A stretch of 64,000 nt of DNA, taken from positions 21,752 through 85,751 of the forward strand of contig JAFXTO010000002.1 of the NCBI GenBank assembly GCA_017535725.1, in the 5' to 3' direction. The position numbers and the translations under genes are program-made. Shown here piece by piece: positions 1 to 58,976 of the stretch. The notes beneath the pieces were generated by a model. The model was not told the DNA's origin. It saw nothing but the letters and a program-made list of their open reading frames with translations, and did not search any database. This DNA is from Bacteroidaceae bacterium. GTDB taxonomy: Bacteria > Bacteroidota > Bacteroidia > Bacteroidales > Bacteroidaceae. How positions within the stretch are numbered: the first letter of the stretch is position 1; every line of letters begins with the position of its first letter.

Positions 1-2
1 GT

Positions 3-80
3 ATCATCGTGGGCTCCAAGGAAGACTACGACCGCGTGCTCGCCAACCGCAAGGCTATCCTCGACTACGACTACGACTAA
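3..80 (+). CDS. C-terminal end of an unidentified CDS entering from upstream
   Basis: Frame 3 is open from the window edge (..IIVGSKEDYDRVLANRKAILDYDYD) to TAA at 78-80. A terminator hairpin follows. Too short to name. Confidence 0.35.
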   Translation: MIVGSKEDYDRVLANRKAILDYDYD

Positions 81-135
81 GTACACCTCCATGGTCATAC
101 GCCCTGTTAAGGGCAAAAGCCATGGATGGAACTAT

Positions 136-190
136 GCACAGAGTGGCTGTAACCAACTTCGGTCACAGCCACTCTGCATTTCTTCTTCCA
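136..190 (+). terminator. Rho-independent terminator
   Basis: 12-bp perfect stem: cagagtggctgt (139-150) pairs with acagccactctg (165-176). It is followed by the T-rich tract catttcttcttcc. Confidence 0.6.
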
Positions 191-273
191 ACGATGAGAA
201 CCACCTCATCATGAATCACCAACTGCTCAGCCCTAACTGCCAACGCTCTTTTGCCTGAATAACCCCAACGAAT

Positions 274-3200
274 ATGCAAAATACCTCTGAAAGCCTGACA
301 AGTACCCTCTTCCGGAAAGGTGTACTACTGAAACTACAACTGCAAGACGGCACAGACCTGCAAGGACAGGTCGTGGACGTCAACCCGGAAGGCATCCTGC
401 TACGTGACGACGAAGGAAACCAAACCATACTCACCTCCGACCTGCTGACCCACGCCTTGTACCTCTACAGCGGCTTCCCCACGCAAGAGGCAGAAGTGGA
501 AGTGCCGGTAACGGTGGCCGGTAACGGTTATATCCGCAGCTATAATGGTAAGATAGGATTCACCGACAATCAATTTGTCATCCAACCAGATTCCCTCCTC
601 GACGCCACCCTCCGTCAAGACGCCCAGGCCTTTCCTGCCAGTATTGTAGACCGTGAGGTACTGGTTGTGGTAGAAGAAGGTGCCGTGAAGAAGGCGTACT
701 TGCTGAGTGTGGGCGCCCTCGATGCCGTACTCGACAAGATTGCCGAGCTGGCAGCCATGCGCAAATACTCACTGGCTCGCCGCTTCTGTGAACTCTTGTC
801 GAAGCAGTTCCCCGAAGATTCTGACATCGCCAACTTCCTCCAGAAACTGCAGGACGCCACGAACTCGGGCAAGAAGGTGGACTTCTATCAGCCCATACAA
901 AGTGCAGAGGAACGCCAGCAGGCACAGGACAACGAAGAACTCCTGCCCATGGGACGCATCTTCGAAATGAACAACTATAAAAATGGATACATCATCGACG
1001 TGAGAAGCCACAAGAAGCTATTCTTCCACCGAGAACAGCTCTTGGGCGAACTGGAACGAAAGTCCACGCAGGAACTAATCGGACAGCCCGTGGTTTATTC
1101 CATCACACGAGTCAACGACAAGTTGCAAGCCCGTAGCATCATGGCTCCCATGCAGGTGGACGATGCCTTCCAACTGGCTGAAGTCAAGTACCGACAAAAG
1201 GACATGACCCTGACCGCCTGCGACATCCTTCGAATCATCCTTCAGCAATATGAGGATGACTATATTGCTCGGACTTACAGCCAATGGAAAGCCAAACGTG
1301 AGTTCCTGCTTTGGTCTATAGAAGCACTACCCGACTACCAAGGACAACCGGTAAGCCTACGGCGTTCCATAGAGGTGCCCGGAACAAGCACCAAGGACGT
1401 GAATCTGGAGCGCAAAACCGACCACACCCAGATGGAAATGGGGTTCGCCCCACCCGAATGCCCCAAAATAACCTTCACGTCCGAAGAACCCGAAGAACTG
1501 ATAGCCATTGAGCCCGAACCTGACGGCGAACTACCCGAAGCACCGCAGGAAGAAAGCGAAGAAGCTGACAAGACTATTGACGAGACACCCTCCGAAACAG
1601 AATTGCAACCCGCCTGGGCCGAAGTTCGGAAGGAGCCTGAAGAGGTCTTTGAGATGCCCACAGAAGAGGAGATTGCTGCCAGCGAGGGTGCCGAATCCGT
1701 GGTACAACCCAACGCCAGGCTCACCTATCATTACGGCGATGGGATTTTATACGACCGCCAAGGGGAGCAGTACAGCTTCACCCTCGATGACATCATCGAC
1801 GACACGTTGTTTGAAGAGGTGCGCAACAAGAACAACAATTCCGATGATTACGTGCGCGAGCGCGAAGTCATCTGCCAGCTCTACGAATCTGGAGGACGCA
1901 GGGCACGCAACATCTGCCGACCACTGACGGTACACGAATTGCTGCGTATGGCGCTGGACGCCTACAACACCGAAGACCTCGACTCGCGAGATCTGGAATA
2001 TATCAACGGGCTCATAGGCAACGTGCTCGATTATATCCCTAACAACATGGCTGCTAACCGAATGTACGATGTCGTTAGGATGCGAAGGGATACCGACAGC
2101 GAAACCTGCTACAAGGCGCCAGCAGGAGTGAAACCCTTCGGAACCATCTCCACGATTAATTGCGAACAGAAGCCTCAGCTGAAGATTAGCGACCCTCACT
2201 TCCGAAGACCCATACCTTTCCAGATTTCCGAAATCATCGACCGAGGCTACGACCACCAATGCCACGGCGATGAACTCATGTACTCCATCTATACCAATGA
2301 ACAAGGAGAGCCCATAGCACGATTCGTACATCGTGCAAAATCCGAAAGCGAGCTCTTCGCCTTAGCAGAGGACTGGGCAGGCAAAGGAGAGGTGGTGAAG
2401 GCATGGGCCATCATGATGAATTTGCTCGACCTCAACCCTGACAACGAGCGGGCCAAGCTGTTGGCTGCTGACTACGAGAACCATGCCGATGAACAAGGAG
2501 CGCCCTTCGTAGGTGAAGAGCTGAAACAGGGACGCCAATTCAATGACCTCCTGGCCCAGGCACGATTTTGTGCCGAACGGGGAGAACTGAATAAGGCACT
2601 CGAACTCTACGCACAGGAACTTCAAGACCCCAGGGAACCCGATAACCGAGCCTACTGCATCCGCGAGAGCATACAAATCTACAGCAAACTTTACCACGAC
2701 GACCCCACCGATACGGCTCTCCTCGCCGACTACCGCCGCTTTGGCGATATGTACATCAACTCGGAAAACGGTTTCGCCAACCAGACCAAGAAAGTACTGG
2801 AGAACATCCGGGTGGTAATCATCTACCACCAGGACATGGAAGAACCAGACAACCTGATAAGGGCACTCCGACGACTACTTCCATTGTTGCAGAACCCCAC
2901 AACATGGCCGCGGTTAAACGGAGACCCGCAGAGCATCATCGCCGCGACCCGAGCGGAACTGGCCTGGTCCCTCCTACGTCAGGGCAACAACCAGGAGGCA
3001 GAGGACATGACCCGTCTCAGCGAACGCTCCTTCGACAACGAGAAAGCGCGAATGTGTCGCGCGGTCATCGAAGAGCGAAAGGTGGGCACGGAAAAGAACA
3101 TTCGATGGTCACGGTCGTTCAGGCCTTACAACGTCTACGCACTCGACACCTGCGACTGTCGTGTCTCGGTACAACAGTCTCGGGAAAAGAAAGGCCTCAT

Positions 3201-5550
3201 CTACCACCGCTTCAAAATGCTATGCCAACTGCTGGACATGCAGAACGAGTCCCTTTCACAGGGCACACGCATGGACGAATCTTCCCGTACCCTCCTCATG
3301 AAGCTGCTGGCAGGGTATGTCTCCACCCTGCTGTGTGACGACTGGCAGCAATACGCCCGAGACAAGTTCCTACATCAGTACCTGCCCGGAGACTGTCAGC
3401 TGGTACTTCAGCTCAGCCGTTGTGTCTCCAAAGGACTCTCGTGGAACGGATGGATGGACCTCCGACTGATGTCCATGCTCTGCGGCGAGGCAGCCTACGC
3501 CATCTGCAGCATCCTCTTTAGCCTCAACCGCGACCAAGCTATCGATCTGTTGCGCAATTCCCACATCGAAATCAGCTACGAGAACAAGGCCGTTACACCG
3601 CAGTTCTACGCCGGCCGCTTCAACGAATGGCGTGGGGAGAACTTCCGAGACCTCCTCATCCAGGTGCTGCGCAAGTCCGAGGAACTGGTGGAACGACCCC
3701 GTTTGAGCGACTGCGCTGACTTCTTCCGCCAACTGACCTTCGAAGCGTGGATGTCTCAGGATGACAGCGACCTCATCACCGCCCTGCGACAACAGTTGCC
3801 CATACTCATCGCAGCCTTCCTCAGTTCCCATACGGAAAATGCACGCACTATCATCAACGCCTACCAGTCTTTGACCGGATTCCTTACGGACAAGATCGAA
3901 GCCATCAGCCAGCGTCCTACTGTCTTCTCGGCCGTCGTCCTGGACCCGCTGCTTAAGAAGATTCTCTCCGAGGCACAACTTCTCTACGACCGCCTGCAAT
4001 TCGAGGCTCCCCTGCCCAAGGCTACCGTCATCTCCACCTCACTCGTAGGAACCGATGGTTCCTTCCTCACCGAAGTTCAGGTGTGCAACGCCTGTCGCAT
4101 GGCCACACCCATGAAAGACCTGCATCTCATCGTAGACCACATCAGCGGCGGAGTGCAAACGGAGAAACCAATCATCTACTCCGATATCAGCAAGGTAGAT
4201 GGCAAAGTTTATGGCGAGGAATATGTCATCTATACCATTCGGGCACGACTTACTGGCGATTGGCAGCAGCAGCGCTCAGGACAGTTGCAGCTCCGACTGC
4301 TTTTCACCAACGAGGAGGGCACCCACCTCGAAGCACCCTTCGAACTCCCCTTCCCCATACAGGAGTGGACAGAGCAGACACCCAAGTTGCCTGAAATCTA
4401 CGCAGCTGGTCCCAAGGTAGAAGACGAGAAAATGTTCTACGGACGTGATGACGATGTGGCTGCTGTCGTCTCTGCCGTCGGAGCCACCAAGAACAAGCCC
4501 CACTACTTCATCTTTGGACAGAAGCGCAGTGGTAAGTCCTCCCTGCTCTACCACATCCAGAAGAAACTCCTCGCCAACTACCACTTCATCAGTGTAGAGA
4601 TGGCTTTCGCGGACTTCACCATCCACCGCGAGGAGCACATCTACCGCCACATCTTCTCTGCCGTACAGACAACCCTTGACTGGGACTACGACATATCCGT
4701 GGAGGACTGGACCGACGCCGACGAAACTTCCACCGATTCCATGACCTTCAGCCAGTTCGTCAACAATCTTAAGCACATCAACAAGACCATTGAGGCATCG
4801 GAACAATGGCATGACTACCGCCTTGTCTTCTTCATCGACGAGTTCACCACCTCCTACGAGTGGTTCGTCAGAGGGAAAATTCCCAAGGAATTCTTCGGAC
4901 GTTGGAAGAGTCTACAGGACAAAGGACTCTTCAGTGCCGTACTCATCGGGCAGGATGTTTTCCGCTACATCGTTCGCGACCTCGTACACAACGACTTCGG
5001 CAGCCTGCTGAATTTGGAACTCACCTACCTAAGCCGCGAAGCTGCCATGCGTCTGGTCACTGACCCTGTCGTAGAAGCTAGCGGCAACGCTGACATTTAC
5101 GTGGGAAATGCCGTACAACGCATCCTCTATTACTCGGCCAATAGCGCCTACTACACCCAATGGATATGCAGTGAACTCATCAAATATGTCAACGCCAACC
5201 GCCTGCAACTCATCACGGAAGCCGACGTCGAGGAATGCGTACACCGCATGATGAACGACGATCCCAACGAATTGAAAGTGAAGTTCTCACCTTTGGAATA
5301 CTCTGGCCGAGACCCCAAGGAGTCATGGCAATTCCCGCGAGAGGAAACCGTAGCCGTTCTCCGACAGGTTGCTCTGGCAGAAATCAGCGACCCCGTGCGA
5401 GGCTGTCCACGGTGGAAGATACACTCCGAGAACGGACGTACCGACGAGTTCCTGGCTGACCTCGTGGAACGACACGTGCTCACCGTCGACAACGACAACT
5501 ACAAACTTATCGTCAAACTTTATCTTTTATATCATGGACTTAGCAAATAA
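274..5550 (+). CDS. Giant (1758 aa) multidomain P-loop NTPase with N-terminal Sm-like and repeated cold-shock/OB-like modules, an acidic linker, a helical/TPR-like middle and a C-terminal STAND/AAA-like ATPase
   Basis: Single uninterrupted 5.3-kb ORF. Walker A is GQKRSGKS at 4516-4539, preceded by FYGRDDD. Walker B-like RLVFFIDEF lies near 4819-4845. The N-terminus LQDGTDLQGQVVDVNPEGILL resembles the Hfq/Sm pattern. Four G-x-I..G-[FY]-I..FFH-type CSD-like segments are visible. Confidence 0.85.
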   Translation: MQNTSESLTSTLFRKGVLLKLQLQDGTDLQGQVVDVNPEGILLRDDEGNQTILTSDLLTHALYLYSGFPTQEAEVEVPVTVAGNGYIRSYNGKIGFTDNQFVIQPDSLLDATLRQDAQAFPASIVDREVLVVVEEGAVKKAYLLSVGALDAVLDKIAELAAMRKYSLARRFCELLSKQFPEDSDIANFLQKLQDATNSGKKVDFYQPIQSAEERQQAQDNEELLPMGRIFEMNNYKNGYIIDVRSHKKLFFHREQLLGELERKSTQELIGQPVVYSITRVNDKLQARSIMAPMQVDDAFQLAEVKYRQKDMTLTACDILRIILQQYEDDYIARTYSQWKAKREFLLWSIEALPDYQGQPVSLRRSIEVPGTSTKDVNLERKTDHTQMEMGFAPPECPKITFTSEEPEELIAIEPEPDGELPEAPQEESEEADKTIDETPSETELQPAWAEVRKEPEEVFEMPTEEEIAASEGAESVVQPNARLTYHYGDGILYDRQGEQYSFTLDDIIDDTLFEEVRNKNNNSDDYVREREVICQLYESGGRRARNICRPLTVHELLRMALDAYNTEDLDSRDLEYINGLIGNVLDYIPNNMAANRMYDVVRMRRDTDSETCYKAPAGVKPFGTISTINCEQKPQLKISDPHFRRPIPFQISEIIDRGYDHQCHGDELMYSIYTNEQGEPIARFVHRAKSESELFALAEDWAGKGEVVKAWAIMMNLLDLNPDNERAKLLAADYENHADEQGAPFVGEELKQGRQFNDLLAQARFCAERGELNKALELYAQELQDPREPDNRAYCIRESIQIYSKLYHDDPTDTALLADYRRFGDMYINSENGFANQTKKVLENIRVVIIYHQDMEEPDNLIRALRRLLPLLQNPTTWPRLNGDPQSIIAATRAELAWSLLRQGNNQEAEDMTRLSERSFDNEKARMCRAVIEERKVGTEKNIRWSRSFRPYNVYALDTCDCRVSVQQSREKKGLIYHRFKMLCQLLDMQNESLSQGTRMDESSRTLLMKLLAGYVSTLLCDDWQQYARDKFLHQYLPGDCQLVLQLSRCVSKGLSWNGWMDLRLMSMLCGEAAYAICSILFSLNRDQAIDLLRNSHIEISYENKAVTPQFYAGRFNEWRGENFRDLLIQVLRKSEELVERPRLSDCADFFRQLTFEAWMSQDDSDLITALRQQLPILIAAFLSSHTENARTIINAYQSLTGFLTDKIEAISQRPTVFSAVVLDPLLKKILSEAQLLYDRLQFEAPLPKATVISTSLVGTDGSFLTEVQVCNACRMATPMKDLHLIVDHISGGVQTEKPIIYSDISKVDGKVYGEEYVIYTIRARLTGDWQQQRSGQLQLRLLFTNEEGTHLEAPFELPFPIQEWTEQTPKLPEIYAAGPKVEDEKMFYGRDDDVAAVVSAVGATKNKPHYFIFGQKRSGKSSLLYHIQKKLLANYHFISVEMAFADFTIHREEHIYRHIFSAVQTTLDWDYDISVEDWTDADETSTDSMTFSQFVNNLKHINKTIEASEQWHDYRLVFFIDEFTTSYEWFVRGKIPKEFFGRWKSLQDKGLFSAVLIGQDVFRYIVRDLVHNDFGSLLNLELTYLSREAAMRLVTDPVVEASGNADIYVGNAVQRILYYSANSAYYTQWICSELIKYVNANRLQLITEADVEECVHRMMNDDPNELKVKFSPLEYSGRDPKESWQFPREETVAVLRQVALAEISDPVRGCPRWKIHSENGRTDEFLADLVERHVLTVDNDNYKLIVKLYLLYHGLSK

Positions 5551-6094
5551 AAAAAATATCATTTGGGCGCGTATTCGCACCCTCGGACCGCAGTCCATCG
5601 TACTGCCCCCCTCCACGGACGACCATCAGGTAGCCCTCGCCCTCATCAGCGAGCTGGAAACCGAGATGCAAGAGGAACATTTCGTTGCCGTCACCATTCC
5701 CTGTGAGAAGTACACCACCATTCTCGACTTTTGGAAAGCGCTGACCATGGAGGTGTGGAAAGCACTGTGCCCTGTCATGCAGCCTCAGCTACGCTCCACT
5801 ATGGAAAACAAAGTCCTCCGCATGGCCCAGAGCCAGCGCACCATCGACCTCTTCAATGGACTGCTGCATTTCCTGAAACATGTGAGGGAGAAACAAGGCT
5901 TGAAGGTGGTGCTTATCCTCGAGAAGTTCGCCGCGCTCGTGGAGCTACAGGACGAGTCCGATGCCATGAAAATACGCCAGTTGACAGACGTGATGGCGCT
6001 ACTGACCCTCTCGGAGAAACCCCTGGTGGAACTCGCCGACAAATACAAGAACGAATACTTCTGCAACCAGTTTGTGGCCTTGCAGGCATCCTGA
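5534..6094 (+). CDS. Small (186 aa) partner protein; NTPase-like layout without a Walker A lysine
   Basis: ATG at 5534 overlaps the stop of the giant gene by 17 nt. VVLILEKFAAL resembles a Walker B strand with the acidic residues lost. GPQSIVLPPSTDD sits where a P-loop would be. The upstream part of tracked ORF 5369.. lies inside the previous gene and was discarded. Confidence 0.65.
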   Translation: MDLANKKNIIWARIRTLGPQSIVLPPSTDDHQVALALISELETEMQEEHFVAVTIPCEKYTTILDFWKALTMEVWKALCPVMQPQLRSTMENKVLRMAQSQRTIDLFNGLLHFLKHVREKQGLKVVLILEKFAALVELQDESDAMKIRQLTDVMALLTLSEKPLVELADKYKNEYFCNQFVALQAS

Positions 6095-6106
6095 CCTCAG
6101 CAGCCT

Positions 6107-7846
6107 ATGGAATACCCTTTTTCATTCGTGGGAAAGTCCTCCCTCGGAACGGACTTCGTGGGACGTGACAGCCAGTCCAAACTCATCACCGAACGCACCT
6201 TAGAGGGTAGCATGACCTGCATCGTGGGACTTCCACGAATGGGCAAGACGTCCCTCATAAACCACCTTTTCTTCGAATCTGGGCGTCCTGAGTGGTGGGC
6301 ACAGCACCACCTCCTGCCTCTCTACGTCAGCATAGACACTTGCGCCACAGCCGATGAGTTTTGGGGCAGTGTCGCCTCCCAGCTTTACCAAGCCGTCGAT
6401 GACTGGGTAGAACAGCAGCAGATACCCGTAGAGAACAAGGACCTACGGAAATTTTACGAAGAACTGCAGAAAGCCGACCATCCAGCTGCCGATGGCGCCT
6501 TCATCTTTAACAAGATGACAAACAGCCTTACCTCCTTGAAGAATCTGCAGTTGCAGGTCATCTTCATCTTGGACGAGCTCGACAGCCTGGGCCGGTACCA
6601 CTACGGCTACGACCACTTCCGTAAGATTCGCGCCCTTGCTAACTACGGACCGCTCATCACCTGCTCACGTAGACAGCCCCAAGCCATCGAGAAGAAGGCT
6701 TTTGACACCGACTATTTCTCCAACATGTCCGAGAAAGTCTTCATCGGGACGTTCACTCCCGACGAGGTTACGACCTACTGGCAACACTTCCGTCCGGCTT
6801 TCAGCCAGCTCAGTGGCCCCGAGTTCCGCGAGTACCGCAAACTCGTAGCACGCTACGCTGGCAACCATCCACACCTGATGAACCTGATGAACTACCACGC
6901 TCTGCATTCGGGGAACCTCACAGAATGGCAGCGCGCTATGGGAACAAGCCAACGCTACCGGCAGGAATGGCAGTTTCGTGCATCGCTGGTCGAAGCCTTC
7001 CGCGAACAGATGCGATACATAGAGGAACAGGAACTAAATAAAACGGCCATCGTAGCTGTGCTCGGAGGAGAACGCAAGGAGGACTTTGCCGACCAAATCA
7101 CCACCCTCAAGCAGTACACCTTCATCCGTGAAGTCACCAACGAGGAGAAACGAGCCCTCTTCACCTATGACCTGGGGCTGCAGACGCCGGACTGCAGATA
7201 CCGCTACGTTTGCCTCTCTGACTTCTTCAGCCATTTCATGCGTGACAACTACCTCCCTACCTACAAGGACTCAGAATTGCACATCGTCACCGAACTGAAG
7301 CTTCGGGAACTCGTTCGGGCATTCCTTCGACTGCAATTCGGCGATGATGCACTAAAGCCCATTGGCGATGATGAGTACGCCCACGAGCACTATGAGGAAC
7401 ACTGGGAAAAACCTTATCGCCTCTTCTGCGAACGCAAGGCACTCTTGTATTTCGACGAAGACAACGAGACTGCATGGAGCGAAATCAAGCACCGACGCTG
7501 GCAACTGACGCAGACCGACTGCAAGCCACCCTCAGAGCGACCACCCATCGACTTCCTTACAGGTCTCAACCTTCACCAGCTCAAGACATTCTTCCTCAAA
7601 CCCCTGTGGTTCACCTTCTTCGGCAAAGTGCTCGATGCCGAACAATGGGGAGAAAGCACCTATAAAGGCAATCGCGAGAGATGGATGCATACCTATTTCG
7701 ACCCTTTCCACACAATCCGTAACCGCGACAGCCACCGTAACCTTGTATTCATTACCGAGGAGGCCATCGAAAAAGCCCACAGCGCTTGCCGCAAGATTTG
7801 CCAGGACATTGACCGCTGGATGGCACAACAAGCAGATTCATTATAG
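6107..7846 (+). CDS. P-loop NTPase (STAND-like) with a C-terminal HEPN-type domain (predicted RNase)
   Basis: Walker A is GLPRMGKTS at 6227-6253. Walker B is VIFILDELD. AGNHPHL is a GxP-like motif. The C-terminal motif R-N-R-D-S-H (Rx4H) is at 7718-7735, within FHTIRNRDSHRN. The gene starts 12 nt after the previous stop. Confidence 0.85.
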   Translation: MEYPFSFVGKSSLGTDFVGRDSQSKLITERTLEGSMTCIVGLPRMGKTSLINHLFFESGRPEWWAQHHLLPLYVSIDTCATADEFWGSVASQLYQAVDDWVEQQQIPVENKDLRKFYEELQKADHPAADGAFIFNKMTNSLTSLKNLQLQVIFILDELDSLGRYHYGYDHFRKIRALANYGPLITCSRRQPQAIEKKAFDTDYFSNMSEKVFIGTFTPDEVTTYWQHFRPAFSQLSGPEFREYRKLVARYAGNHPHLMNLMNYHALHSGNLTEWQRAMGTSQRYRQEWQFRASLVEAFREQMRYIEEQELNKTAIVAVLGGERKEDFADQITTLKQYTFIREVTNEEKRALFTYDLGLQTPDCRYRYVCLSDFFSHFMRDNYLPTYKDSELHIVTELKLRELVRAFLRLQFGDDALKPIGDDEYAHEHYEEHWEKPYRLFCERKALLYFDEDNETAWSEIKHRRWQLTQTDCKPPSERPPIDFLTGLNLHQLKTFFLKPLWFTFFGKVLDAEQWGESTYKGNRERWMHTYFDPFHTIRNRDSHRNLVFITEEAIEKAHSACRKICQDIDRWMAQQADSL

Positions 7847-7878
7847 TCCACTTCACCACCCCAATACCACCTTACACA

Positions 7879-9153
7879 ATGACACACCGATACACTGCCT
7901 ACTTCTGTGGATGCCTGACGGCCAACAACGAAGTCAGCACCAGAAGCCTCATCGACGCAGGATGGAAGCAAGAAGAGAATAAAGAGATGGCTACCTATCA
8001 GGCCAAACACATTTATTACGACGAGTTCCTGAATTTCTGCGCTGCAAAGACACCGCAAGAAGGCTGTGTGGCGTGGAGGTATGAGATGAAAGAGGATGAG
8101 CGCGTTGGAACCTGCAAGAACCTACTCGATCAAGTTGTCATTTATCTCGTGCCTGCCTTGCATTGTTACATACTGCCTTTTGGTATAGTCATCTTCGCCA
8201 TTGAAGTCACCGCCGTGGATGAAGTCATGGACAACTTCATATCCATAGCCGTCCAACTGCGCCGTCTGGCAATCCCCCAAGGGGTGGCAGACGTCTTGCG
8301 CAAGTTAAAGAACAAAGTAACAGGAAATGAGCAGGTGGAACTGTCCGAGGCACTGGACTATGGCTACAAACTGAAGGTCTTTCAGATCATAGACTCTGAT
8401 GCGGCTTGGAACAGCGAGACGAATGAGGAGCGGAAACAGGTGCTGTTCCGATTAGGAGTCATACAAAGCAACAAATCCACCATATCCACGCGGTTCCAGG
8501 ACGGTTACGAGGAGGGCATCCTGAATCAACACAGCATCTCCGTTTTCAATAATTGGGATGCCTTAGCCCTGCTCGACTCCTTCACAATCCGTTCTATGCA
8601 ATGCGAGGATTGGCAGATGAAGGAGTGGCAAAACGCCTTCTTCCGCATGATTTACATCCAGAGCCTCTTCCAGAAATTCTATCTCCAAAGCCTGAACCAG
8701 CGTTTCCGTGCGATGGTGGAGCATCGAAGTAAGGACAAGTTAGCGAATTTACTAGCAGAGTTCGAACACTACGAACGCATCTGCCAATTCAACAAGGTGT
8801 CCTACACCTTCCTGCCACTCCTCATCGACAACGCCATCGACACCTCGTTGGAAATCAAAGAGGAGCGCGATTTGCTTTCTACCTACATCAAAGGAGAGGA
8901 GAAACGCCATGAGTCTGACAACGAACGAAGAATCAATCGTCTGTTGCTCGCCATTTCCTGTCTGACCATGTTCTCCGCCATCTGGGATCTCTCGAGTCTC
9001 ATGAACGAAATCCTACCCTACAATTGTTTCTTCTGCAGCACTCGCAGAGGGTATGCCATAATATCATCTGGTCTGCTTATTATCGTGCTGGTTCTCATTG
9101 CCTTCATTTATATAATGGGAAAAAGCAGGAACCGGAAACGGGACCAACAATAG
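7879..9153 (+). CDS. CorA-like membrane protein with a soluble N-terminal domain, two C-terminal TM helices and a basic tail
   Basis: NERRINRLLLAISCLTMFSAIWDLSSLMNEILPY aligns in spacing with the CorA N..LT..(TM1)..GMN..P segment, but has LMN instead of GMN. A second TM (GYAIISSGLLIIVLVLIAFIYIM) and the tail KSRNRKRDQQ follow. An alternative start is ATG at 7987. Confidence 0.7.
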   Translation: MTHRYTAYFCGCLTANNEVSTRSLIDAGWKQEENKEMATYQAKHIYYDEFLNFCAAKTPQEGCVAWRYEMKEDERVGTCKNLLDQVVIYLVPALHCYILPFGIVIFAIEVTAVDEVMDNFISIAVQLRRLAIPQGVADVLRKLKNKVTGNEQVELSEALDYGYKLKVFQIIDSDAAWNSETNEERKQVLFRLGVIQSNKSTISTRFQDGYEEGILNQHSISVFNNWDALALLDSFTIRSMQCEDWQMKEWQNAFFRMIYIQSLFQKFYLQSLNQRFRAMVEHRSKDKLANLLAEFEHYERICQFNKVSYTFLPLLIDNAIDTSLEIKEERDLLSTYIKGEEKRHESDNERRINRLLLAISCLTMFSAIWDLSSLMNEILPYNCFFCSTRRGYAIISSGLLIIVLVLIAFIYIMGKSRNRKRDQQ

Positions 9154-9179
9154 CGGTTCACCCGAACAAAAAAGTGTTC

Positions 9180-9211
9180 GCTCCAAAGTGGGCATGAATC
9201 CACTTTGGAGC
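9180..9211. terminator. Bidirectional hairpin terminator between the convergent four-gene operon and mdh
   Basis: Perfect 12-bp stem: gctccaaagtgg (9180-9191) pairs with ccactttggagc (9200-9211), with an 8-nt loop and A/T-rich flanks. Confidence 0.65.
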
Positions 9212-9237
9212 GAGCAACAGGGAAGAAATAAAAATTC

Positions 9238-10224
9238 TTAGAGGTTTGCGTTGTCCTTGCCCCACTCCTCCACGGGAGGAATGATGCCGAGGCCAATGAT
9301 TTCGTCGCGCATCTTCTGCAGGTGCTCGTAGGATGCCTGAAGGGCAGCCATCTCTTCTTCAGTACCCTCGGGAGCCGTGAAGTGAACACCGTCCTTGTCA
9401 ATCACTGAGGGCATAGCCATCATCACATTCTTGAAGCCGAAGGCGTTGACATAGCAGCCAGCAGGCCAGGTGAAGGGTTCGCCACCCATAGCACCCTCAA
9501 TCATCTTGACAGCCTGATAAGCAGGGCTCTGGAAGGAGGAGCGGCCACGCAGCTTGATGATATTGCTGCCGCCCTGAGTGGTCATGTGCTTGATTTCTGC
9601 CCAGCGCTCGGCAGAGAGAGGCAGTTCGCTGAGGGGCTTGCCATCGATGAGAGCCTTGCTGGCAAAGACTGCCATCTGTTCGCCGTGACCACCGTAGGTG
9701 TAGGCCTGAGTGACCTTGTCCTGCTGCACGCCGAACTCCTGAGCCAGCTGCTGCTGCAGACGGGTGCTGTCGAGAGCGGCCAGGGAGGTAAGCTGGTTGG
9801 GCTTCAGACCAGAGTGGATAAGAGCGGTGAGGGCGGTGACGTCAGCGGGGTTGAAGATGACGACCACGTGGTTCACATCGGGGCAGTACTTCTTGATGTT
9901 CTCGCCGAAGTCTGCTGCAATCTGGCAGTTACCCTTGAGCAGGTCCTCACGTGTCATGCCTTCCTTACGGGGAGCACCACCGGAAGAGATGATGTACTTA
10001 GCACCCGTGAAAGCTTCCTCTGCATTCACCGTATAGGAGAGGTTTGCACCGGGGAATGCGCAGTGGCACATCTCATCGTACACACCATGAACGCCGGGCT
10101 CATAGATATCGTAGAGGCAGATGTTTGGGGTCAATCCCAGCATCAGGACACTCTGAACCATGTTCGAACCAATCATGCCACCGGCACCTACAATCACAAG
10201 TTTGTCATTCGTTAAGAATTTCAT
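9238..10224 (-). CDS. mdh: Malate dehydrogenase (LDH-like family)
   Basis: MKFLTNDKLVIVGAGGMIGSNM Rossmann N-terminus. 328 aa; length and sequence are typical of Bacteroidota Mdh. Confidence 0.93.
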   Translation of the reverse strand: MKFLTNDKLVIVGAGGMIGSNMVQSVLMLGLTPNICLYDIYEPGVHGVYDEMCHCAFPGANLSYTVNAEEAFTGAKYIISSGGAPRKEGMTREDLLKGNCQIAADFGENIKKYCPDVNHVVVIFNPADVTALTALIHSGLKPNQLTSLAALDSTRLQQQLAQEFGVQQDKVTQAYTYGGHGEQMAVFASKALIDGKPLSELPLSAERWAEIKHMTTQGGSNIIKLRGRSSFQSPAYQAVKMIEGAMGGEPFTWPAGCYVNAFGFKNVMMAMPSVIDKDGVHFTAPEGTEEEMAALQASYEHLQKMRDEIIGLGIIPPVEEWGKDNANL

Positions 10225-13832: not shown

Positions 13833-14933
13833 ATGCTGATTAAGTTCGCTGTAACCAACTTCCGAGGGTTTGCCAAACGTATTGAATGGGACTTGTCGAA
13901 GCCCAGTAATTATGCCTTTCGTTCGGAGGTCATCAAGGATGGTATTATCAAAAATGGAATCATTTACGGTCCAAATGGTGTTGGCAAGTCAAACTTTGGC
14001 CTTGCCATCTTTGACATCGTTTATCATTTAACCATCAAATGGAAGAAAGGTGATTATCTGAGCAACTACACCTATGCCGGTAAGACGGATATGCCTGTTT
14101 CGTTTGAATACGCATTTATGTTAGGCAGCGACCTCGTAGAATACAACTATTCGAAGAATCATGCTGGAGTGCTTCTTTCGGAAACGCTTCGTGTAAACAA
14201 TCATCAAGTATTCAAGCAGGACAAAGAAACTTTCGAGATTGACGAAACGCAGTTCAAAGTTGATGCGACGATTCAGAATAATTTCAAGCAGAGCGTAAAC
14301 GGTGCTTCTGTTATTGCCTTTTTGACTGCGTCGTTCCCACTGCCGCAAGAGCACTATATTGTCAAACTGTTGCAATTCGTCAACTCCATGCTTTGGTTTA
14401 AATGTCTGGAGAGCCGTGAGTTTATTGGTTTAGAGACAAGCAACATAGAATTGGATGCCTATATTATCCAGAATAATCTCGTTGGAAACTTCAAGAGTTT
14501 CCTAAAGCAAGTGAGTGAGCAAGAGTTTAATTTTGTCAAGCCAAACGAAGGGGACAAACTACTATTCTGCGAAATCGACGGGAACAAAATGCCGTTTATC
14601 AGTATTATTTCAACAGGAACCAAGTCTCTGCAATTACTCTATGTCTGGATGCAAGAGATGAAAAATGCCTCGTTCGTCTTCATTGACGAGTTTGACGCGT
14701 TCTATCATTTCAAGCTGGCCTTTGAGGTTTGCATGCAACTTTTCAAGTTGGATTGTCAGATATTCATGTCATCACACAACACCTATCTGATGACAAACGA
14801 CCTGTTGCGACCCGACTGTAACTTCATCATCGGTGACAACAAAATCAAGCCCTTGAACGACTGCACAGAGAAAGAACTCCGCTTCGGTCATAATATTGAG
14901 AAACTTTTCCGCGGTGACGCATTCCGAGTATGA
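13833..14933 (+). CDS. AAA/ABC-type ATPase (AAA_21/RloA/AbiLi-like)
   Basis: Walker A is GPNGVGKSN near the N-terminus. Walker B/D-loop is FVFIDEFDAF. H-loop is SSHN. 366 aa. Confidence 0.85.
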   Translation: MLIKFAVTNFRGFAKRIEWDLSKPSNYAFRSEVIKDGIIKNGIIYGPNGVGKSNFGLAIFDIVYHLTIKWKKGDYLSNYTYAGKTDMPVSFEYAFMLGSDLVEYNYSKNHAGVLLSETLRVNNHQVFKQDKETFEIDETQFKVDATIQNNFKQSVNGASVIAFLTASFPLPQEHYIVKLLQFVNSMLWFKCLESREFIGLETSNIELDAYIIQNNLVGNFKSFLKQVSEQEFNFVKPNEGDKLLFCEIDGNKMPFISIISTGTKSLQLLYVWMQEMKNASFVFIDEFDAFYHFKLAFEVCMQLFKLDCQIFMSSHNTYLMTNDLLRPDCNFIIGDNKIKPLNDCTEKELRFGHNIEKLFRGDAFRV

Positions 14934-15694
14934 TTTTGTTCGTATTTGAAGGAGAAAAAGAGAGCCCGACCTTTTCCACACGTTGGAGCGTTTATATTTC
15001 CCAAGGGATAACAACCGCATAGTCTGTTCTTTTGGGAATAACCTCTATTACTTGTACAAGGAACTGGAGAAATACGGTGAAGATGGTGACATTGTTGCTA
15101 TCATGAAAGAACTACTGGCAAGGAAGGAGGACAATCCATTAGCCAACATAAAGCGTTCTTCTGACTTCTCCGAAATATACCTTTTCTTCGACTATGACTT
15201 CCATCATAAACAGCTGTCTGTTGAAGAAATCAATCTCCAAGTCAGCGAGATGTTATCCCTTTTTTGCGATGAAACAGACCGAGGCAAGCTCTACATTAAT
15301 TATCCGATGATTGAATCCATTCGATACACGAAGGAATTGCCGGATGAGAACTATCACACCTACGTAGCCACAAGAGAAGAATGCCGCCACTTCAAAGCTT
15401 TGGCAGATTCCTTTTCAGTCTATTCATCACTCGATTTCATCCTATTGAAAGAAGAGAAACCAACAAAAAAGAAATATATGTCGGTGCATGACAACTGGGA
15501 ATATCTTAAAGATCAGAACGTCAAGAAGGCAAACTTCATTTGCAACGACATCTGCGCTTATCCTACGACAAAGAGAGCAATTTCGCAAGACATCATATTT
15601 TGCCAGTCAAGTCTCAAAATATGTGGATACAGAGAAGACAGAAGTTGCTATACTAAATGCCCTTCCGATATTCCTATATGAATACTTCAAATAA
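14930..15694 (+). pseudogene. Toprim/RloB-like partner gene interrupted by two single-base homopolymer indels
   Basis: ATG at 14930 overlaps the ATPase stop (ATGA) and gives MILFVFEGEKE (Toprim Glu strand). The frame breaks in the A-run at about 14953-14961 and continues as REPDLFHTLERLYF..LFFDYDFHH (DxD). A second break at the T-run near 15598-15601 restores the first frame, giving ASQVSKYVDTEKTEVAILNALPIFLYEYFK and a stop at 15694. Confidence 0.6.
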
Positions 15695-15760
15695 AATGCA
15701 GGTGAAAAGGTACATATAACTCTTCATATTCCGCACTTATTATTACAAATATCACATCAT

Positions 15761-15879
15761 TTGTGATGGATTTGTGCAATTATCTAAGCCTAAATGCTCA
15801 AATTAGCAAGAAAAGAATGGCGATACGGGAAATCTTTGTACTTTTGCAACACTAAATACGGAATCTTTATGGCAAAGAA
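15761..15879. repeat. Direct repeat copy 1 (119 bp: promoter, 5-prime UTR and codons MAKK)
   Basis: Near-identical to 19148-19267 (one extra T and one substitution). Contains TACTTTTG at 15839-15846. Confidence 0.9.
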
Positions 15880-17539
15880 GAAGAATAAGAAGCAGAAGGG
15901 GCAGCAGTTCCTCTCACCAGAGCAGTATATTAGGCAGAAAGCGCGGACGCTGGAAATCGGCAAGTGTTATGTAGACAACGACCTCGAAAAGGCGGGCGAG
16001 GGTCACATCATCGTCAGCCGCAAGCATACTGGAGGAAGGGTGAGCATCGGTTTCTATCTCGTGGACATCTGGTGTGTCGGCGTGAAGCGCTCGTTTTATC
16101 GTCTGCGCATGGAGGACTATGAGCTCGACGAGATGATAGATTCGTACCAGCTTAATTTGCGCGAATGTAGTTACGACGAGGTCCACAACTGGATATACGG
16201 AGCCATTGCCTTCGCCGAGGAAGCTGGCATTGCTCCCGACAAAAGTTTCAACCTGACACAATACTTCCTCGAGGAGGACGATGATGATATCCCCCTCATG
16301 GAGTTCGACTTTGGCCGAAAGGGCAAGCATACGCTGGTCGCCAGCAGCAATTTAGAGGCCAGCCGCTATCTGCCTCTGCTCGAGAAGAATCTCGGCAAGG
16401 GGAACTATGATTACATCCTTCGTGTAGACGAGGATGATGATTTTGAGGAAGACGAGGATGATGATTTTGATGAAGACGAGGTCGAGGAATCCGAAGGCCC
16501 TATTTATATGCGCCAATTGGTAGATGACATAGAAATTAATGACCTCTTGGGATGTGCTGCAATCCTTGGATTGAAGATTGACACAAAAGCTTCAGAAGAA
16601 GAGATTCGCCGACAATATATAGAAGGTGTACTCTCCGACCCATACGACATACTTTGTCGTCTGCCGAATGAGGACACGGCCATGCTGGAAACAGCACAGA
16701 ATGAGCATGACAACCGTGTCTTTTATCCAGATAACTATCGAATGCCTTTGCTCTATCATTATGGCTTTGCTGATGAGGATTGGGACGAGGATGGCAATCG
16801 TGTGATCCAGATAGCCAAGGACTTTGCGGACGCCATGTCGCCTCACTTGGCAACTGCGTCGGAAGAACCTGCCAATATGGGACGTCTCATCATGGAGGCC
16901 GTCATCGACGGACTGGCTAATCTCTTCGGTGAGATACGCTTAGATGAGGCTAAACGATATATAAAGATGGTTTTTGACCATAAAGAGGACCTGAATGTGG
17001 ACAGACTCTCACAGTTGGTTATGGGACACTCCCTGCTGCTTGACTGGATGGCCGTGCCTCTTGGCCCCGCCCACCAATCGGTGTATGAACTTCCTGACGA
17101 CCAGGTGGTCTTTTTGTCCCTCTATGGATGGAATACGCCAGAGAAGCTGCGCGACAAGATAGCTCAGCGCCAAACGATTCCGAGCCGAAAGGACTACACC
17201 ATGGAGGAGATTATCCAATCATCCTCCGTACTGCCAATCATCCCGAATCCAGAAGCAAAGAACTTCCACCGGTTCCTTCAGACGACACTCGGCTATGACG
17301 AAGAAGAGGCTAAAGAAATCTCCTTCAACCTGTGGTATCGCGCCCAGCACGAAGAGGACGAGAGTTTCGAAGACGGCACCTATCAGGACTATTTCACCAA
17401 AGAGGTTCTCCGTCAGGCTCCCAAGCGCATAGGAATGAAACAAATGAACGAAGCGATTTCGGCACTGACCAACTACATGAATGCCATGCCACGCTGGATA
17501 CTGAAAGGGCATTCTCCTAATGAGGTGAACGAGTTATAA
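15869..17539 (+). CDS. Hypothetical protein (556 aa) with a basic N-terminus and an acidic D/E tract
   Basis: Long ORF. Start chosen at MAKKKNKKQKG (ATG 15869), 23 nt after a TAnnTTTG element. No recognisable catalytic motif. Confidence 0.75.
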   Translation: MAKKKNKKQKGQQFLSPEQYIRQKARTLEIGKCYVDNDLEKAGEGHIIVSRKHTGGRVSIGFYLVDIWCVGVKRSFYRLRMEDYELDEMIDSYQLNLRECSYDEVHNWIYGAIAFAEEAGIAPDKSFNLTQYFLEEDDDDIPLMEFDFGRKGKHTLVASSNLEASRYLPLLEKNLGKGNYDYILRVDEDDDFEEDEDDDFDEDEVEESEGPIYMRQLVDDIEINDLLGCAAILGLKIDTKASEEEIRRQYIEGVLSDPYDILCRLPNEDTAMLETAQNEHDNRVFYPDNYRMPLLYHYGFADEDWDEDGNRVIQIAKDFADAMSPHLATASEEPANMGRLIMEAVIDGLANLFGEIRLDEAKRYIKMVFDHKEDLNVDRLSQLVMGHSLLLDWMAVPLGPAHQSVYELPDDQVVFLSLYGWNTPEKLRDKIAQRQTIPSRKDYTMEEIIQSSSVLPIIPNPEAKNFHRFLQTTLGYDEEEAKEISFNLWYRAQHEEDESFEDGTYQDYFTKEVLRQAPKRIGMKQMNEAISALTNYMNAMPRWILKGHSPNEVNEL

Positions 17540-17965: not shown

Positions 17966-18763
17966 TTATCTGATGTTTTCGGTGAGACATTCCATATAGT
18001 TATCCCATACGGCGGCTGTCCATCTGTCGTCAAATAGTTGGTTCAACTTTTTGCTGACGGTTTCGGCAGGGACTTGCCACTCTTGCGGCATTTCGTTCGT
18101 TATCTCTGCTGCGGCGCTTCTGCTCTGCTGCAGACACTCGGCATAGTCGGCCTTCAGGCGGTTAGCTATGGCGAGGACGGTCTGCTTGTTCGTGCTCTGA
18201 AAGAGATGCCGGAAAAGGTCGGACCAGAGAATGGTGTCTGTAGATGTGAGTTGTGAGAGGGGATAGTCAAACGTGGCGGTGTTGAAGATGCATCCGTAGT
18301 CAATCGATACCAACTGCTCACGAGCCATGTCGTACATCAAGTTAGCATTGTTCGCGTTGCGGTCTTCGTTGGCCACCCAGAAGTCGAAGAGGGCAATCTT
18401 CATCAGTTGGCTCAGAGTCTCAATGGTTGCGGGAACTTTTGCGTAGGTGGAGGGGGTGATGTCAACCACACCGTCCTGCCAGCGGAAGCCTATTGACTGG
18501 GAGGAAAGAATGTGAGATTCGTTTATGCCTTCCCAATGCGAAGGCTTGATATTGACAATTGCGATTTCTGGAGTCCTCAGTTGCCATGCCGTTGCCAATT
18601 GTGCCCCGATGAGTTCACAGGCCAACTTGTAGGCTGTTGCCGAGGATCGCATGTATTTACAGACGTAGATGTTTACGTCTGAACACATCACCATCACTGG
18701 CTCTTCGCCCGTGTGGAACTGGTGCTCGATGCGCTTGGCACTGTATAAAAAAGGGATAGACAT
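17966..18763 (-). CDS. HipA-like serine/threonine kinase (short form, 265 aa)
   Basis: DFWVANEDRNANNANLMYD fits the HipA-family catalytic loop D-x-x-x-x-N..DR..N. Start chosen at MSIPFLYS (18763). Confidence 0.7.
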   Translation of the reverse strand: MSIPFLYSAKRIEHQFHTGEEPVMVMCSDVNIYVCKYMRSSATAYKLACELIGAQLATAWQLRTPEIAIVNIKPSHWEGINESHILSSQSIGFRWQDGVVDITPSTYAKVPATIETLSQLMKIALFDFWVANEDRNANNANLMYDMAREQLVSIDYGCIFNTATFDYPLSQLTSTDTILWSDLFRHLFQSTNKQTVLAIANRLKADYAECLQQSRSAAAEITNEMPQEWQVPAETVSKKLNQLFDDRWTAAVWDNYMECLTENIR

Positions 18764-19147
18764 GATTGTTGAGAATTGCAAATGTGTCGCCTGTGCTAAA
18801 ATGTGGCAGATAAATCGCCGCAAAAATAGTGATTATATCTGATATGTATTGAAGGAAAGCTTGAAAAATACTTAAAGGGAAGAGAAATACAGCAATTTTT
18901 AAGGCAAATGCTTACGTGCGGAAATACTTCTAACCATCCAAACAACGGTATTATGGCTTCGATAAGTGACAAAGCTTACCTCGTAAATGCGTTTGATATC
19001 CGAAGGAACAATTATATTGGCTCATTACATCTTGCTGGTGATTGTGAAGCTATTGAGCAATATGTCTACACTCTTTGCTGGATGCTGTTGAAAAAGTGCA
19101 TATAATTCTTCGGTTTCAATGCCTCAAAAAGTAAAATATGGCATCTA

Positions 19148-57755: not shown

Positions 57756-58535
57756 TTAACAGTCTATAAGATGTAGCCGTCCCCAAACGATGGCCTTCAG
57801 TTTCGGCAATAAGCGGCGCAGGATGAACAACGGTGAAGGCTGGAAACCATGCATTCGTAGGGCACGCAGGATTCCCAAGTTACCGTGGATAATGTTGCGC
57901 AGACTGCGTGCACTCTCACCGCCCGTGCGCATCTTGACAAAATAGCGTGGCAGGTAGCGGTTGCTTAATCCTGCCACCTCAATGAAGCGCAGCATCAGCT
58001 CGAAGTCCGCAGAAACTACGTAGCTGGTGTCGAAGCCCCCCAGCCGCTCGAAGCATTCGCGTCGAGCGTAGAACGTGGGGTGTGCTGGATGCCATCCTTT
58101 CAGATATGCTCCTTTTTGATATTGAGAGCCCTTCCAAATGCGCACAACCCGGTTTTTGTTCTTTGGCAAGACATATAATAAGTCGCCGTAAATGCAATCC
58201 ACCGACTGGTCTTCCATAGCTTGGTTGATGTCTTCCAATACGTGTTTATCGAAGTAGAAGTCATTTGAATTTAGAATGCCTATAATATCACCTGTAGCAT
58301 GGGCAATGCCGCGATTCATGGCATCATAGAGCCCTTCATCCTTCTCCGAGTAAATACGCATCCTACCCTGGCATCTCGGCTCGTATTCTCTCACGATGGA
58401 AAGTGTGTCATCCCGTGAAAGCCCATCTTCGATAATCAGTTCCCAATCTTGGTGAGTCTGCTGAAGAATGCTCTCCAACGTGTCACGCACGGTTGCTGCA
58501 CTATTATATGTTGCTGTGATGATGGAAATTTTCAT
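57756..58535 (-). CDS. Family 2 glycosyltransferase
   Basis: ISIITATYNSAATV..IIEDGLSRDDT..DxD-type GT-A N-terminus. 259 aa. Confidence 0.9.
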   Translation of the reverse strand: MKISIITATYNSAATVRDTLESILQQTHQDWELIIEDGLSRDDTLSIVREYEPRCQGRMRIYSEKDEGLYDAMNRGIAHATGDIIGILNSNDFYFDKHVLEDINQAMEDQSVDCIYGDLLYVLPKNKNRVVRIWKGSQYQKGAYLKGWHPAHPTFYARRECFERLGGFDTSYVVSADFELMLRFIEVAGLSNRYLPRYFVKMRTGGESARSLRNIIHGNLGILRALRMHGFQPSPLFILRRLLPKLKAIVWGRLHLIDC

Positions 58536-58946: not shown

Positions 58947-58976
58947 CGGCAGAATTAAGGATAAAACCATACTGTT

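Follow-up and report, generated by a model that had tools for sequence, protein, structure and literature searches.

A four-gene operon of homologous ATPases with a putative HEPN domain and a CorA-like partner is a candidate conflict system of Bacteroidales

Architecture of the operon

The subject of this study is a four-gene operon near the start of a 64,000-nucleotide stretch of DNA (hereafter the window) from a Bacteroidaceae bacterium (GenBank assembly GCA_017535725.1, contig JAFXTO010000002.1, positions 21,752 to 85,751). A first reading of this DNA, to which we refer as the original prediction, had proposed that the genes form an undescribed defence-type system. Here, we name the genes g1 to g4 in their order in the operon, while homologous loci used for comparison carry L-numbers. 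The operon and its boundaries comprise the following features (aa, amino acids).

136-190, plus strand: hairpin downstream of the rpoC stop codon (78-80), ending in a T-rich tail, 5′ boundary of the operon
274-5550, plus strand: g1, 1758 aa, putative N-terminal sensor region and C-terminal P-loop ATPase predicted to be active (open reading frame, 10 homologues)
5534-6094, plus strand: g2, 186 aa, degenerate paralogue of the g3 ATPase core lacking Walker A and B (hhalign)
6107-7846, plus strand: g3, 579 aa, P-loop ATPase, winged-helix region and probable C-terminal HEPN domain (AlphaFold2 model, 22 full-length homologues)
7879-9153, plus strand: g4, 424 aa, CorA-like membrane protein (AlphaFold2 model, PADLOC CorA models, alignment)
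9178-9213, no strand assigned: perfect 18-bp hairpin separating the operon from the convergent mdh gene, 3′ boundary of the operon

Each of the four proteins has full-length homologues at 25-68% identity, and we therefore regard all four genes as real. An open reading frame (ORF) scan reproduced their predicted packing exactly, with a 17-nt overlap of g1 and g2, a 12-nt gap between g2 and g3 and a 32-nt gap between g3 and g4; the ATG start of g2 at 5534 lies inside the end of g1. The flanking hairpins, which had been called strong, are indeed stable upon folding: the region 125-200, downstream of rpoC, reaches -30.7 kcal/mol (z -5.5) and the region 9165-9230 reaches -31.3 kcal/mol (z -7.1). 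The latter hairpin is common to the operon and the convergent malate dehydrogenase gene (mdh, 9238-10224, minus strand), and a terminator scan found its T-run on the minus-strand side only. No credible terminator was found inside the operon, where terminator-like sites are no commoner than in shuffled sequence.

The base composition of the operon had been described as similar to that of its surroundings. This is correct for G+C; the GC skew of the coding strand, in contrast, is negative and unusual. Across window positions 1-8000, the GC skew of the operon coding strand ranges from -0.09 to -0.15 and the AT skew from +0.12 to +0.22, unlike the same-strand neighbour pepP, whose skew is near zero. 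The skew may be caused by amino-acid composition or by origin.

g3 couples an ATPase to a probable HEPN domain

The following elements were assigned within g3.

6155-6748, plus strand: ATPase core, residues 17-214 (homologue alignment; Pfam AAA_16 and AAA_22 sub-threshold)
6227-6253, plus strand: Walker A GLPRMGKTS, K47 invariant (homologue alignment)
6572-6583, plus strand: Walker B D156-E157-x-D159, followed by an invariant S187-R188-R189 (homologue alignment)
7259-7843, plus strand: probable divergent, insert-bearing Swt1-like HEPN domain, residues 385-579 (motif and domain profile)
7718-7735, plus strand: HEPN motif R538-N539-x3-H543, invariant in 22 homologues

An AlphaFold2 model of g3, built on 22 homologues, reached a predicted local distance difference test score (pLDDT) of 88.8. 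The best Foldseek matches cover the N-terminal ~400 residues and are the archaeal ATPase_2 proteins PABY2304 (2qen, E 1.3e-7) and SSO1545 (2fna), followed by Orc1/Cdc6 and, lower in the list, by MuB and Avs4 (Avs4 at rank 31, E 1e-3); this whole-chain search was dominated by the ATPase and speaks to that part of the protein. A direct Pfam scan returned AAA_16 and AAA_22, both sub-threshold. Among the 22 homologues, which share 30-47% identity, the Walker A and Walker B motifs, the S-R-R triplet and R538-N539-x3-H543 are all invariant.

Residues 389-575 of the model are entirely helical, with R538 placed at the end of helix 523-538. To follow this domain on its own, we searched a profile of the HEPN region against 1.84 billion representative proteins and obtained 74 proteins, in every one of which the match lies C-terminally in an ATPase protein of 500-650 aa. 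Six of ten distant members found through the profile match Pfam HEPN_Swt1 on exactly this region, and the g3-like partners in L014/L016/L017 (Pirellulaceae, Lamprobacter and Thiodictyon) match both HEPN_Swt1 and HEPN_SAV2148. Among the distant relatives, the E values for HEPN_Swt1 lie between 7e-6 and 3e-3, and the best score, 26.7 bits, falls just short of the cut-off of 27.5; in two relatives the matches were to HEPN_Swt1 (E 0.036) and NTase_sub_bind (E 0.046). Moreover, the ExxLR helix and the RNxxxH motif of g3 align residue for residue with the distant partners (VRNPMAH). Against the PDB, the profile produced a spurious acetylcholinesterase match only. Because the RNxxxH motif is invariant and the profile reaches proteins that match HEPN_Swt1, we accept the assignment: the C-terminal domain of g3 is very likely a divergent, insert-bearing HEPN domain of the Swt1-like kind. 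The earlier proposal of a second P-loop NTPase ending in an Rx4H HEPN motif is thus well supported by the invariant motif and the transitive profile link. A diverged relative of g3 (P0072) carries an Hfq-like N-terminus.

The structural matches of g3 also bear on whether the operon might be the remnant of a mobile-element AAA+ module of the TniB/MuB type or an ORC/Cdc6-like replication factor, for which the presence of MuB and ORC/Cdc6 in the Foldseek list and faint TniB Pfam matches in relatives would speak. Yet the best matches are archaeal ATPase_2 proteins rather than MuB, the ATPase is fused to a HEPN domain and accompanied by a CorA-like partner, and no transposase, integrase or replication gene was found in the examined loci with three or all four of the operon genes. 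Likewise, we saw no terminal inverted repeats or conserved transposase genes around homologous loci. As no locus contains a transposase, we rejected the transposon (TniB/MuB) reading, and the explanation as a whole appears exceedingly improbable.

g1 and g2 contribute two further ATPase modules

The giant protein g1 can be divided as follows.

286-483, plus strand: residues 5-70, weakly assigned Sm/Hfq-like module (hhalign, PDB profile)
496-1158, plus strand: residues 75-295, small β-rich module present twice (at 75-150 and at 220-295) and perhaps of cold-shock/OB type (hhalign)
1474-1704, plus strand: residues 401-477, E/P-rich acidic linker (25 of 80 residues Glu; 19% pairwise identity)
1705-2343, plus strand: residues 478-690, two more β-rich modules (478-555 and 612-690; hhalign)
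2344-4023, plus strand: residues 691-1250, helical, partly TPR-like (sub-threshold TPR matches)
4411-5547, plus strand: residues 1380-1758, ATPase_2/AAA_16/nSTAND1-type P-loop ATPase and conserved C-terminal region (Pfam, alignment)
4516-4539, plus strand: Walker A GQKRSGKS, K1421 invariant (homologue alignment)
4837-4842, plus strand: Walker B DE (D1522-E1523), DEF invariant (homologue alignment)

The motif coordinates of the original prediction, namely both Walker A motifs (g1, g3) and the HEPN motif of g3, proved exact. Pfam ATPase_2 matches all 12 g1 relatives (best 1e-9) and nSTAND1 eight of the 12. In the Pfam scan of the operon proteins themselves, the scores stay under the gathering values (nSTAND1, 22.4 bits against 27.1; AAA_16, 27.6 against 32.6). 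The ATPase of g1 is homologous to that of g3, with an hhalign probability of 93%. The gene lies upstream of g2 and g3 in L001-5, L011, L013 and L113 as well as in the loci with all four genes.

For the long region in front of this ATPase the picture is less firm. Residues 5-70 align to Escherichia coli Hfq with an hhalign probability of 41%, and the g1 family profile found nothing significant in the PDB, its best match being the Hfq-like Asl2047 (3hfn, E 0.25). Three of the four β-rich modules are repeats of each other, as judged from hhalign probabilities of 87% between modules 1 and 2 and 84% between modules 1 and 3. Module 2 is the best-conserved segment outside the ATPase (50% pairwise identity), and module 4 aligns to CspA with a probability of 37% over 58 columns. 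A distant Pirellulaceae giant in L014 contains a Pfam cold-shock domain (CSD) match at E 6.7e-5, and the stretch of residues 478-690 is missing from the shorter L003 homologue. TPR matches are sub-threshold in the window protein, appear as TPR_14, TPR_7 and Fis1_TPR in relatives and become clear in the distant giants. Hence the 1758-aa protein does end in a P-loop ATPase with an invariant K1421, as had been proposed, whereas the multiple nucleic-acid-binding modules assigned to its N-terminal 1,380 residues are weakly supported, with hhalign probabilities of 37-41%, and constitute a reasonable lead rather than a finding.

The original prediction had further described g2 as a small NTPase-like protein without Walker A, which our comparison makes more precise. 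When eight g2 homologues were aligned and compared with the g3 family, hhalign placed them on g3 residues 25-214 with a probability of 99% (E 7e-18). In this alignment the P-loop is replaced, GLPRMGKTS of g3 facing LPPSTDDHQ, and so is Walker B, DELD facing EKFA. We conclude that g2 is a paralogue of the g3 ATPase core that is predicted to be catalytically dead. As g2 is absent from the distant two-gene loci described below, it probably originated by partial duplication within Bacteroidales. Taken together, the operon encodes three homologous ATPase modules, of which those in g1 and g3 are predicted to be active and that of g2 inactive.

g4 is a CorA-like membrane protein

Two regions can be distinguished in g4.

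7879-8607, plus strand: N-terminal α/β domain (AlphaFold2 model)
8941-9003 and 9049-9117, plus strand: two C-terminal transmembrane (TM) helices after long stalk helices (AlphaFold2 model, hydrophobicity)

The AlphaFold2 model of g4 (pLDDT 87.3) contains helices at residues 326-378 and 388-423, of which residues 355-375 and 391-413 are hydrophobic; the tail that comes after them is basic. In a Foldseek search against the PDB, the top 12 matches were all Thermotoga maritima CorA, with ZntB and CmaX next; the alignments span more than 300 columns with probabilities up to 0.96, but E values are 3e-3 to 5e-2 and TM-scores only 0.20-0.28. The PADLOC CorA-like models PDLC01043 and PDLC01174 match 17 (best 3.7e-12) and 15 (best 3.7e-11) of 25 g4-family members, respectively, in each case on the C-terminal region; the window protein itself matches a PADLOC CorA model weakly (E 0.011). 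The proposed CorA-like two-TM protein is thus supported above all by the family profiles, which are more decisive than the structural matches. Classically, CorA proteins act as Mg2+ channels. The g4 protein lacks the GMN motif of such channels and instead has a conserved FSAIWD at the end of the first TM helix (F365, S366, W369 and D370 invariant); invariant residues of the N-terminal domain are W226, D233 and T236. Since the GMN motif is missing and the partner genes vary (see below), we rejected a canonical Mg2+ CorA function and conclude that g4 is CorA-like in ancestry and probably in fold, without being a canonical Mg2+ channel.

The trio is conserved and g4 is exchangeable

The full set of four genes (the quartet) was found in four settings. 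In the window species it always lies between rpoC and mdh, and L020/21 shows the same flanks, with a g4 of 68% identity. In L022/23 the context is different and g3 is 46% identical, and L034 contains a shorter g1. The trio g1-g2-g3 without g4 occurs in at least six further lineages (L001/2, L003/4, L005, L011, L013 and L113). Furthermore, a two-gene form, made up of a giant TPR/CSD ATPase and an ATPase-HEPN protein, is present in Pirellulaceae, an unclassified metagenome-assembled genome, Lamprobacter and Thiodictyon (Planctomycetota, Chromatiaceae). The original prediction had looked for the four genes to co-occur elsewhere: the quartet does recur, but in about four lineages only, and the unit that is kept is the trio, with g4 optional. 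The conserved core is therefore the ATPase pair g1 and g3, joined by g2 in Bacteroidales, and not the quartet.

Relatives of g4 have a wider range of partners. In L006 and L010 they stand behind a 557-aa NACHT ATPase and a PPR-like helical protein of 586-606 aa. Among 80 metagenome loci, 52 have the g4 relative next to a P-loop giant of ~1,350 aa that resembles NACHT/NPHP3_N proteins (L035, L039, L057, L074, L102 and about 47 more within L032-L111), and 40 of the 80 contain a GDPD phosphodiesterase (PF03009, E 2e-39). This combination of CorA-like protein, NACHT-like giant and phosphodiesterase is apparently unnamed and commoner than the window system; it recalls the obligate pairing of CorA with NrN or SAM-AMP (S-adenosyl methionine-AMP) lyase in type III CRISPR systems. 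In a distance tree, g4 proteins from quartets and from the NACHT and PPR-like loci intermix at ~50% identity. Because they intermix while their partners differ, g4 is an exchangeable output module of NTPase-based systems that also partners NACHT ATPases.

This exchangeability raises the question of whether the operon consists of two adjacent but independent units, with g1-g2-g3 as a complete HEPN system and g4 acting alone or with a distant partner. The trios that lack g4 are compatible with such an arrangement, as are g4 relatives without a recognisable NTPase neighbour (L008, L032 and L052). However, g4 is co-directional and begins 32 nt after g3 with no terminator between them, four diverged lineages with 46-100% identity preserve the g3-g4 junction, and most g4 relatives abut a gene for a P-loop NTPase. 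On this evidence we think it improbable that the two parts work separately.

Some variants of these loci deserve mention. In otherwise identical strains, g4 was called as 388 aa instead of 424 aa (L024, 11072-12238) and g1 was split into pieces of 385 and 187 aa (L030, 5434-7127), which could reflect gene decay or an assembly error. In the diverged trio of L113, the giant has 1519 aa, the g2-like gene encodes 201 aa and the g3-like gene encodes 622 aa, with an Hfq-like region at the N-terminus of the g3-like product. Downstream of this trio lies a gene for a 338-aa protein (8146-9162) with the motif HPHFLKQYNRRWFLFG, which is WYL-like by eye only and had no sequence match in the PDB.

Distribution and genomic surroundings

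Among 5.8 billion proteins, 23 clusters belong to the g3 family; for the g1 family, protein searches gave 10 homologues or clusters. A pattern-based scan of one genome per species, which may miss members, identified three close loci among 185,579 species genomes, all in Bacteroidales. Moreover, the operon occupies different chromosomal positions in different genomes. When asked whether the homologues might be universal core genes, the data thus answer that they are rare and patchy.

This distribution is difficult to reconcile with a non-immune role, in which the operon would be a housekeeping or regulatory machine of RNA metabolism, such as RNA surveillance or stress RNA decay, coupled to a transporter for Mg2+ or other cations. 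Sm/CSD-like modules next to an RNase domain, a CorA protein as the classical Mg2+ channel, a site between rpoC and mdh with host-like G+C and the presence of the operon in every sampled contig of the species would all suit such a machine. It would nonetheless have to be extremely rare, to change its genomic position while repeatedly acquiring defence-gene neighbours, and to employ a g4 without the ion-selectivity motif GMN, which is recognised by the CRISPR-ancillary CorA models and swaps between unrelated NTPase partners. We accordingly give this explanation little credence.

The neighbouring genes were not as expected. According to the original prediction no other defence genes flank the operon, a statement in need of correction, as defence-type genes do occur nearby. 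Positions 13833-15681 of the window encode the PADLOC candidate system PDC-M12, consisting of PDC-M12A, an AbiLi/AAA_21-like ATPase (E 6e-129), and PDC-M12B (E 3e-49), and a HipA_2/PDC-M66A-like kinase-toxin gene lies at 17966-18823 on the minus strand (E 1e-13). Similar neighbours recur at homologous loci: L013 has a DUF262 Orf5/HEC-06 gene (2e-167) at a distance of 2 kb from the trio, L022 a TIR protein near the quartet, L005 PLD, TIR and MazE near the trio, and L004 HicA near the trio. In L010 the site downstream of rpoC is occupied by a NACHT/PPR-like/g4 system and a TIR protein, which suggests a hotspot for cargo of this kind in Prevotella.

Several details of these surroundings were recorded. 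PDC-M12 lies in a low-GC patch (0.41; 13833-17539), ~4.7 kb downstream of the operon, and is followed by a 581-aa ORF without a match; a second low-GC stretch (0.42-0.43) covers 58000-64000 of the window. The HipA_2-like gene is adjoined by a gene for a 113-aa partner, as in the identical locus L018. The TIR protein of L010 (4902-6389, minus strand) has 494 aa and combines TIR, two ribosomal L7/L12 C-terminal domains and Sel1 repeats. Its gene directly follows rpoC, beside the NACHT, PPR-like and CorA-like genes, and its product could be a decoy or a sensor fusion.

Toxin-antitoxin genes among these neighbours (HicA, MazE, HipA_2) draw attention to conflicts other than those with phages. The operon could be an addiction module, selfish in the manner of toxin-antitoxin pairs, or act against plasmids, integrative and conjugative elements or competitors, with the ATPases restraining the HEPN and CorA-like proteins as toxins. 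HEPN and pore-like proteins are typical toxins, and the link of the operon to phages is presumptive. What speaks against such a role is that the operon has neither a small antitoxin-like partner nor an MNT, that secretion and immunity genes are missing, that homologues were found neither on plasmids (PLSDB) nor in phages (IMG/VR), and that a giant repeat-rich sensor with a switch ATPase is an architecture of pattern recognition. A conflict of this other kind therefore seems unlikely to us, if somewhat less so than the housekeeping role.

Comparison with known systems

Scans of the four proteins against Pfam, NCBIfam and PADLOC returned only sub-threshold P-loop matches and a weak CorA match. 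In agreement with the original prediction that this combination corresponds to no named system, the PADLOC scan gave no system match. A full-text literature search did not find the gene set described, although a computational mention may have been overlooked; the sole related find was CoCoNuT (PMC11090510). In common with the operon, CoCoNuT systems have large multi-domain defence proteins for which a contact with RNA through cold-shock-type domains is predicted, as well as HEPN-type nucleases nearby. Their foundation, however, consists of the McrB GTPase, McrC and coiled coils, all of which are absent from the operon.

The closest parallel in organisation is to Avs, STAND and bNACHT proteins. 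Here too, a P-loop switch ATPase is combined with a large, repeat-rich (TPR-like) putative sensor and a presumed cell-killing effector, the nuclease-type HEPN domain, in a family that is rare, patchy and accompanied by defence genes; the expected common logic would be trigger binding, ATP-dependent oligomerisation and effector activation. Walker A and B are intact and invariant in both g1 (K1421, D1522-E1523) and g3 (K47, D156-E157), as in STAND proteins. However, the parts are distributed over three or four proteins, whereas Avs is a single chain. The order is reversed relative to Avs, as g1 carries the presumed sensor in front of its ATPase and g3 the presumed effector behind it, and there are two predicted active ATPases plus a dead paralogue. 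Furthermore, the operon ATPases are nearest to ATPase_2 (PF01637) and Orc1/Cdc6 folds, and no NACHT, NB-ARC, nSTAND or Avs profile of Pfam or PADLOC scored above threshold for any operon protein. Of the STAND/Avs-like logic claimed at the outset, candidates for the sensor, switch and effector parts are present, but strict membership of the ATPases in STAND or Avs is not supported.

Proteins that join a Swt1-like HEPN domain to a STAND or AAA ATPase (PF18731; PF20703, nSTAND1), conflict-system domains that were defined computationally, form a second point of reference. Like them, g3 is an ATPase with a C-terminal HEPN domain bearing ExxLR and RNxxxH; distant g3 relatives match PF18731 and PF18725, and part of the g1 family matches nSTAND1, as noted above. 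All these matches are below the Pfam gathering scores, the HEPN domain of g3 measures ~190 aa with a large insert, and the searchable literature yielded no description of an obligate pairing with a giant Sm/β-module/TPR ATPase and a pseudo-ATPase.

The membrane component can be compared with type III CRISPR systems of Bacteroides, in which CorA-family proteins are proven immune effectors, gated by SAM-AMP in the Cmr system of Bacteroides fragilis; only the C-terminal part of the CRISPR-associated CorA resembles the Mg2+ channel (PMC10600005). Similarly, g4 has a divergent soluble N-terminal domain followed by a CorA-like stalk and two-TM region, and it shares with these effectors the PADLOC CorA-like models, the C-terminal region that they match and the host phylum. 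The difference lies in the partner, which for the g4 family is a P-loop ATPase module (g1-g3, NACHT with a PPR-like protein, or a NACHT-like giant with or without GDPD). No cas10 or other cas genes, CRISPR array, NrN or SAM-AMP lyase were found in the examined loci.

Finally, the co-occurrence of homologous ATPases of which one, g2, lacks its Walker motifs is reminiscent of ORC and clamp loaders, and the presumed placement of the sensor on one chain (g1) and the executioner on another (g3) of plant sensor/helper NLR pairs. These would be analogies only in organisation: there is no sequence relationship past the shared ATPase fold, and the complex of the operon proteins is presumed. Taken together, the architecture of the operon and the coupling of CorA to NTPases are new, while NTPase-based conflict systems with HEPN and membrane effectors are of an already known kind.

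A probable conflict function and its proposed mechanism

From the anatomy of the proteins, the co-occurrence of their genes, the rarity of the family and its genomic neighbours, we infer a function in defence. The operon probably represents an NTPase-switch conflict system of an unnamed family, most likely of the anti-phage abortive-infection type. The original proposal of an undescribed defence-type system is consistent with the evidence that bears on it, namely the HEPN and CorA-like assignments, the nature of the small protein as an ATPase paralogue without Walker A, the rarity and patchiness, and the lack of a named counterpart.

A number of observations weigh against this interpretation. 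The operon has the G+C content of its housekeeping neighbours. Of 23 contigs with an identical Mdh, all that extend far enough carry the operon, and hence no presence/absence polymorphism was seen within the species. A direct sign of mobility is also lacking, as neither g3 nor g4 relatives were found among IMG/VR viral contigs and PLSDB plasmids. PADLOC-DB v2 yielded no named system, only noise-level P-loop matches (PDC-S60, mad8) besides the CorA match. The g3 protein of the window has no Pfam HEPN match, and its relatives remain just under the gathering score. The sensor domains of g1 depend on the hhalign values given above and on a single CSD match in a distant relative. Moreover, the CRISPR CorA cousins of g4 are gated by SAM-AMP, and the operon encodes no signal synthase.

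Assuming a conflict system, the following course of events can be proposed. The g1 protein would serve as the sensor, its N-terminal 1,380 residues binding RNA or single-stranded DNA derived from an invader, or a protein. We regard the sensing of RNA as a tentative proposal, somewhat short of an even chance. Binding of the trigger might allow the ATPase modules of g1 and g3 to assemble with each other in an ATP-dependent manner, a process in which g2 may take part as a non-catalytic subunit or adaptor, similar to the dead subunits of ORC and clamp loaders; whether the ATPase modules form such a hetero-oligomer we consider evenly balanced. HEPN RNases are generally activated by dimerisation. 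Assembly could thus bring the HEPN domains of g3 together into a composite RNase site, and the ensuing RNA cleavage would arrest the infected cell. In the quartet form, the ATPase complex might additionally open or activate g4, so that ion homeostasis or membrane potential would collapse as a second effector arm.

A more far-reaching reading would combine these elements with the distribution of g4, although we consider it rather doubtful. Under this reading, CorA-like effectors would be a general, swappable output of NTPase immune sensors in gut and rumen Bacteroidales, with g1-g2-g3, NACHT plus PPR-like proteins, and NACHT-like giants plus GDPD phosphodiesterase as their partners. The trio would operate as a hetero-oligomeric paired-receptor machine, in which a sensor ATPase, a pseudo-ATPase and an executioner ATPase detect invader RNA through Sm/cold-shock-like modules. 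HEPN RNase and ion channel would then be fired together, with the channel gated by contact or by an unknown small molecule.

Implications

The weight of these findings is tempered by the large number of candidate defence systems, the rarity of the family and the fact that its hosts are uncultured. In this respect, the commoner triad of NACHT-like giant, GDPD and CorA-like protein is perhaps the more tractable entry point. The hosts are Prevotellaceae and other gut and rumen Bacteroidales, whose immune systems have been sampled poorly, as the classical pipelines for discovery were built around E. coli and Bacillus. If functional, the operon would place CorA-family membrane effectors outside CRISPR and raise the issue of their gating in the absence of SAM-AMP. 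It would also add a multi-subunit design to the NLR/STAND-like repertoire of bacteria, in parallel to the sensor/helper NLR pairs of plants.

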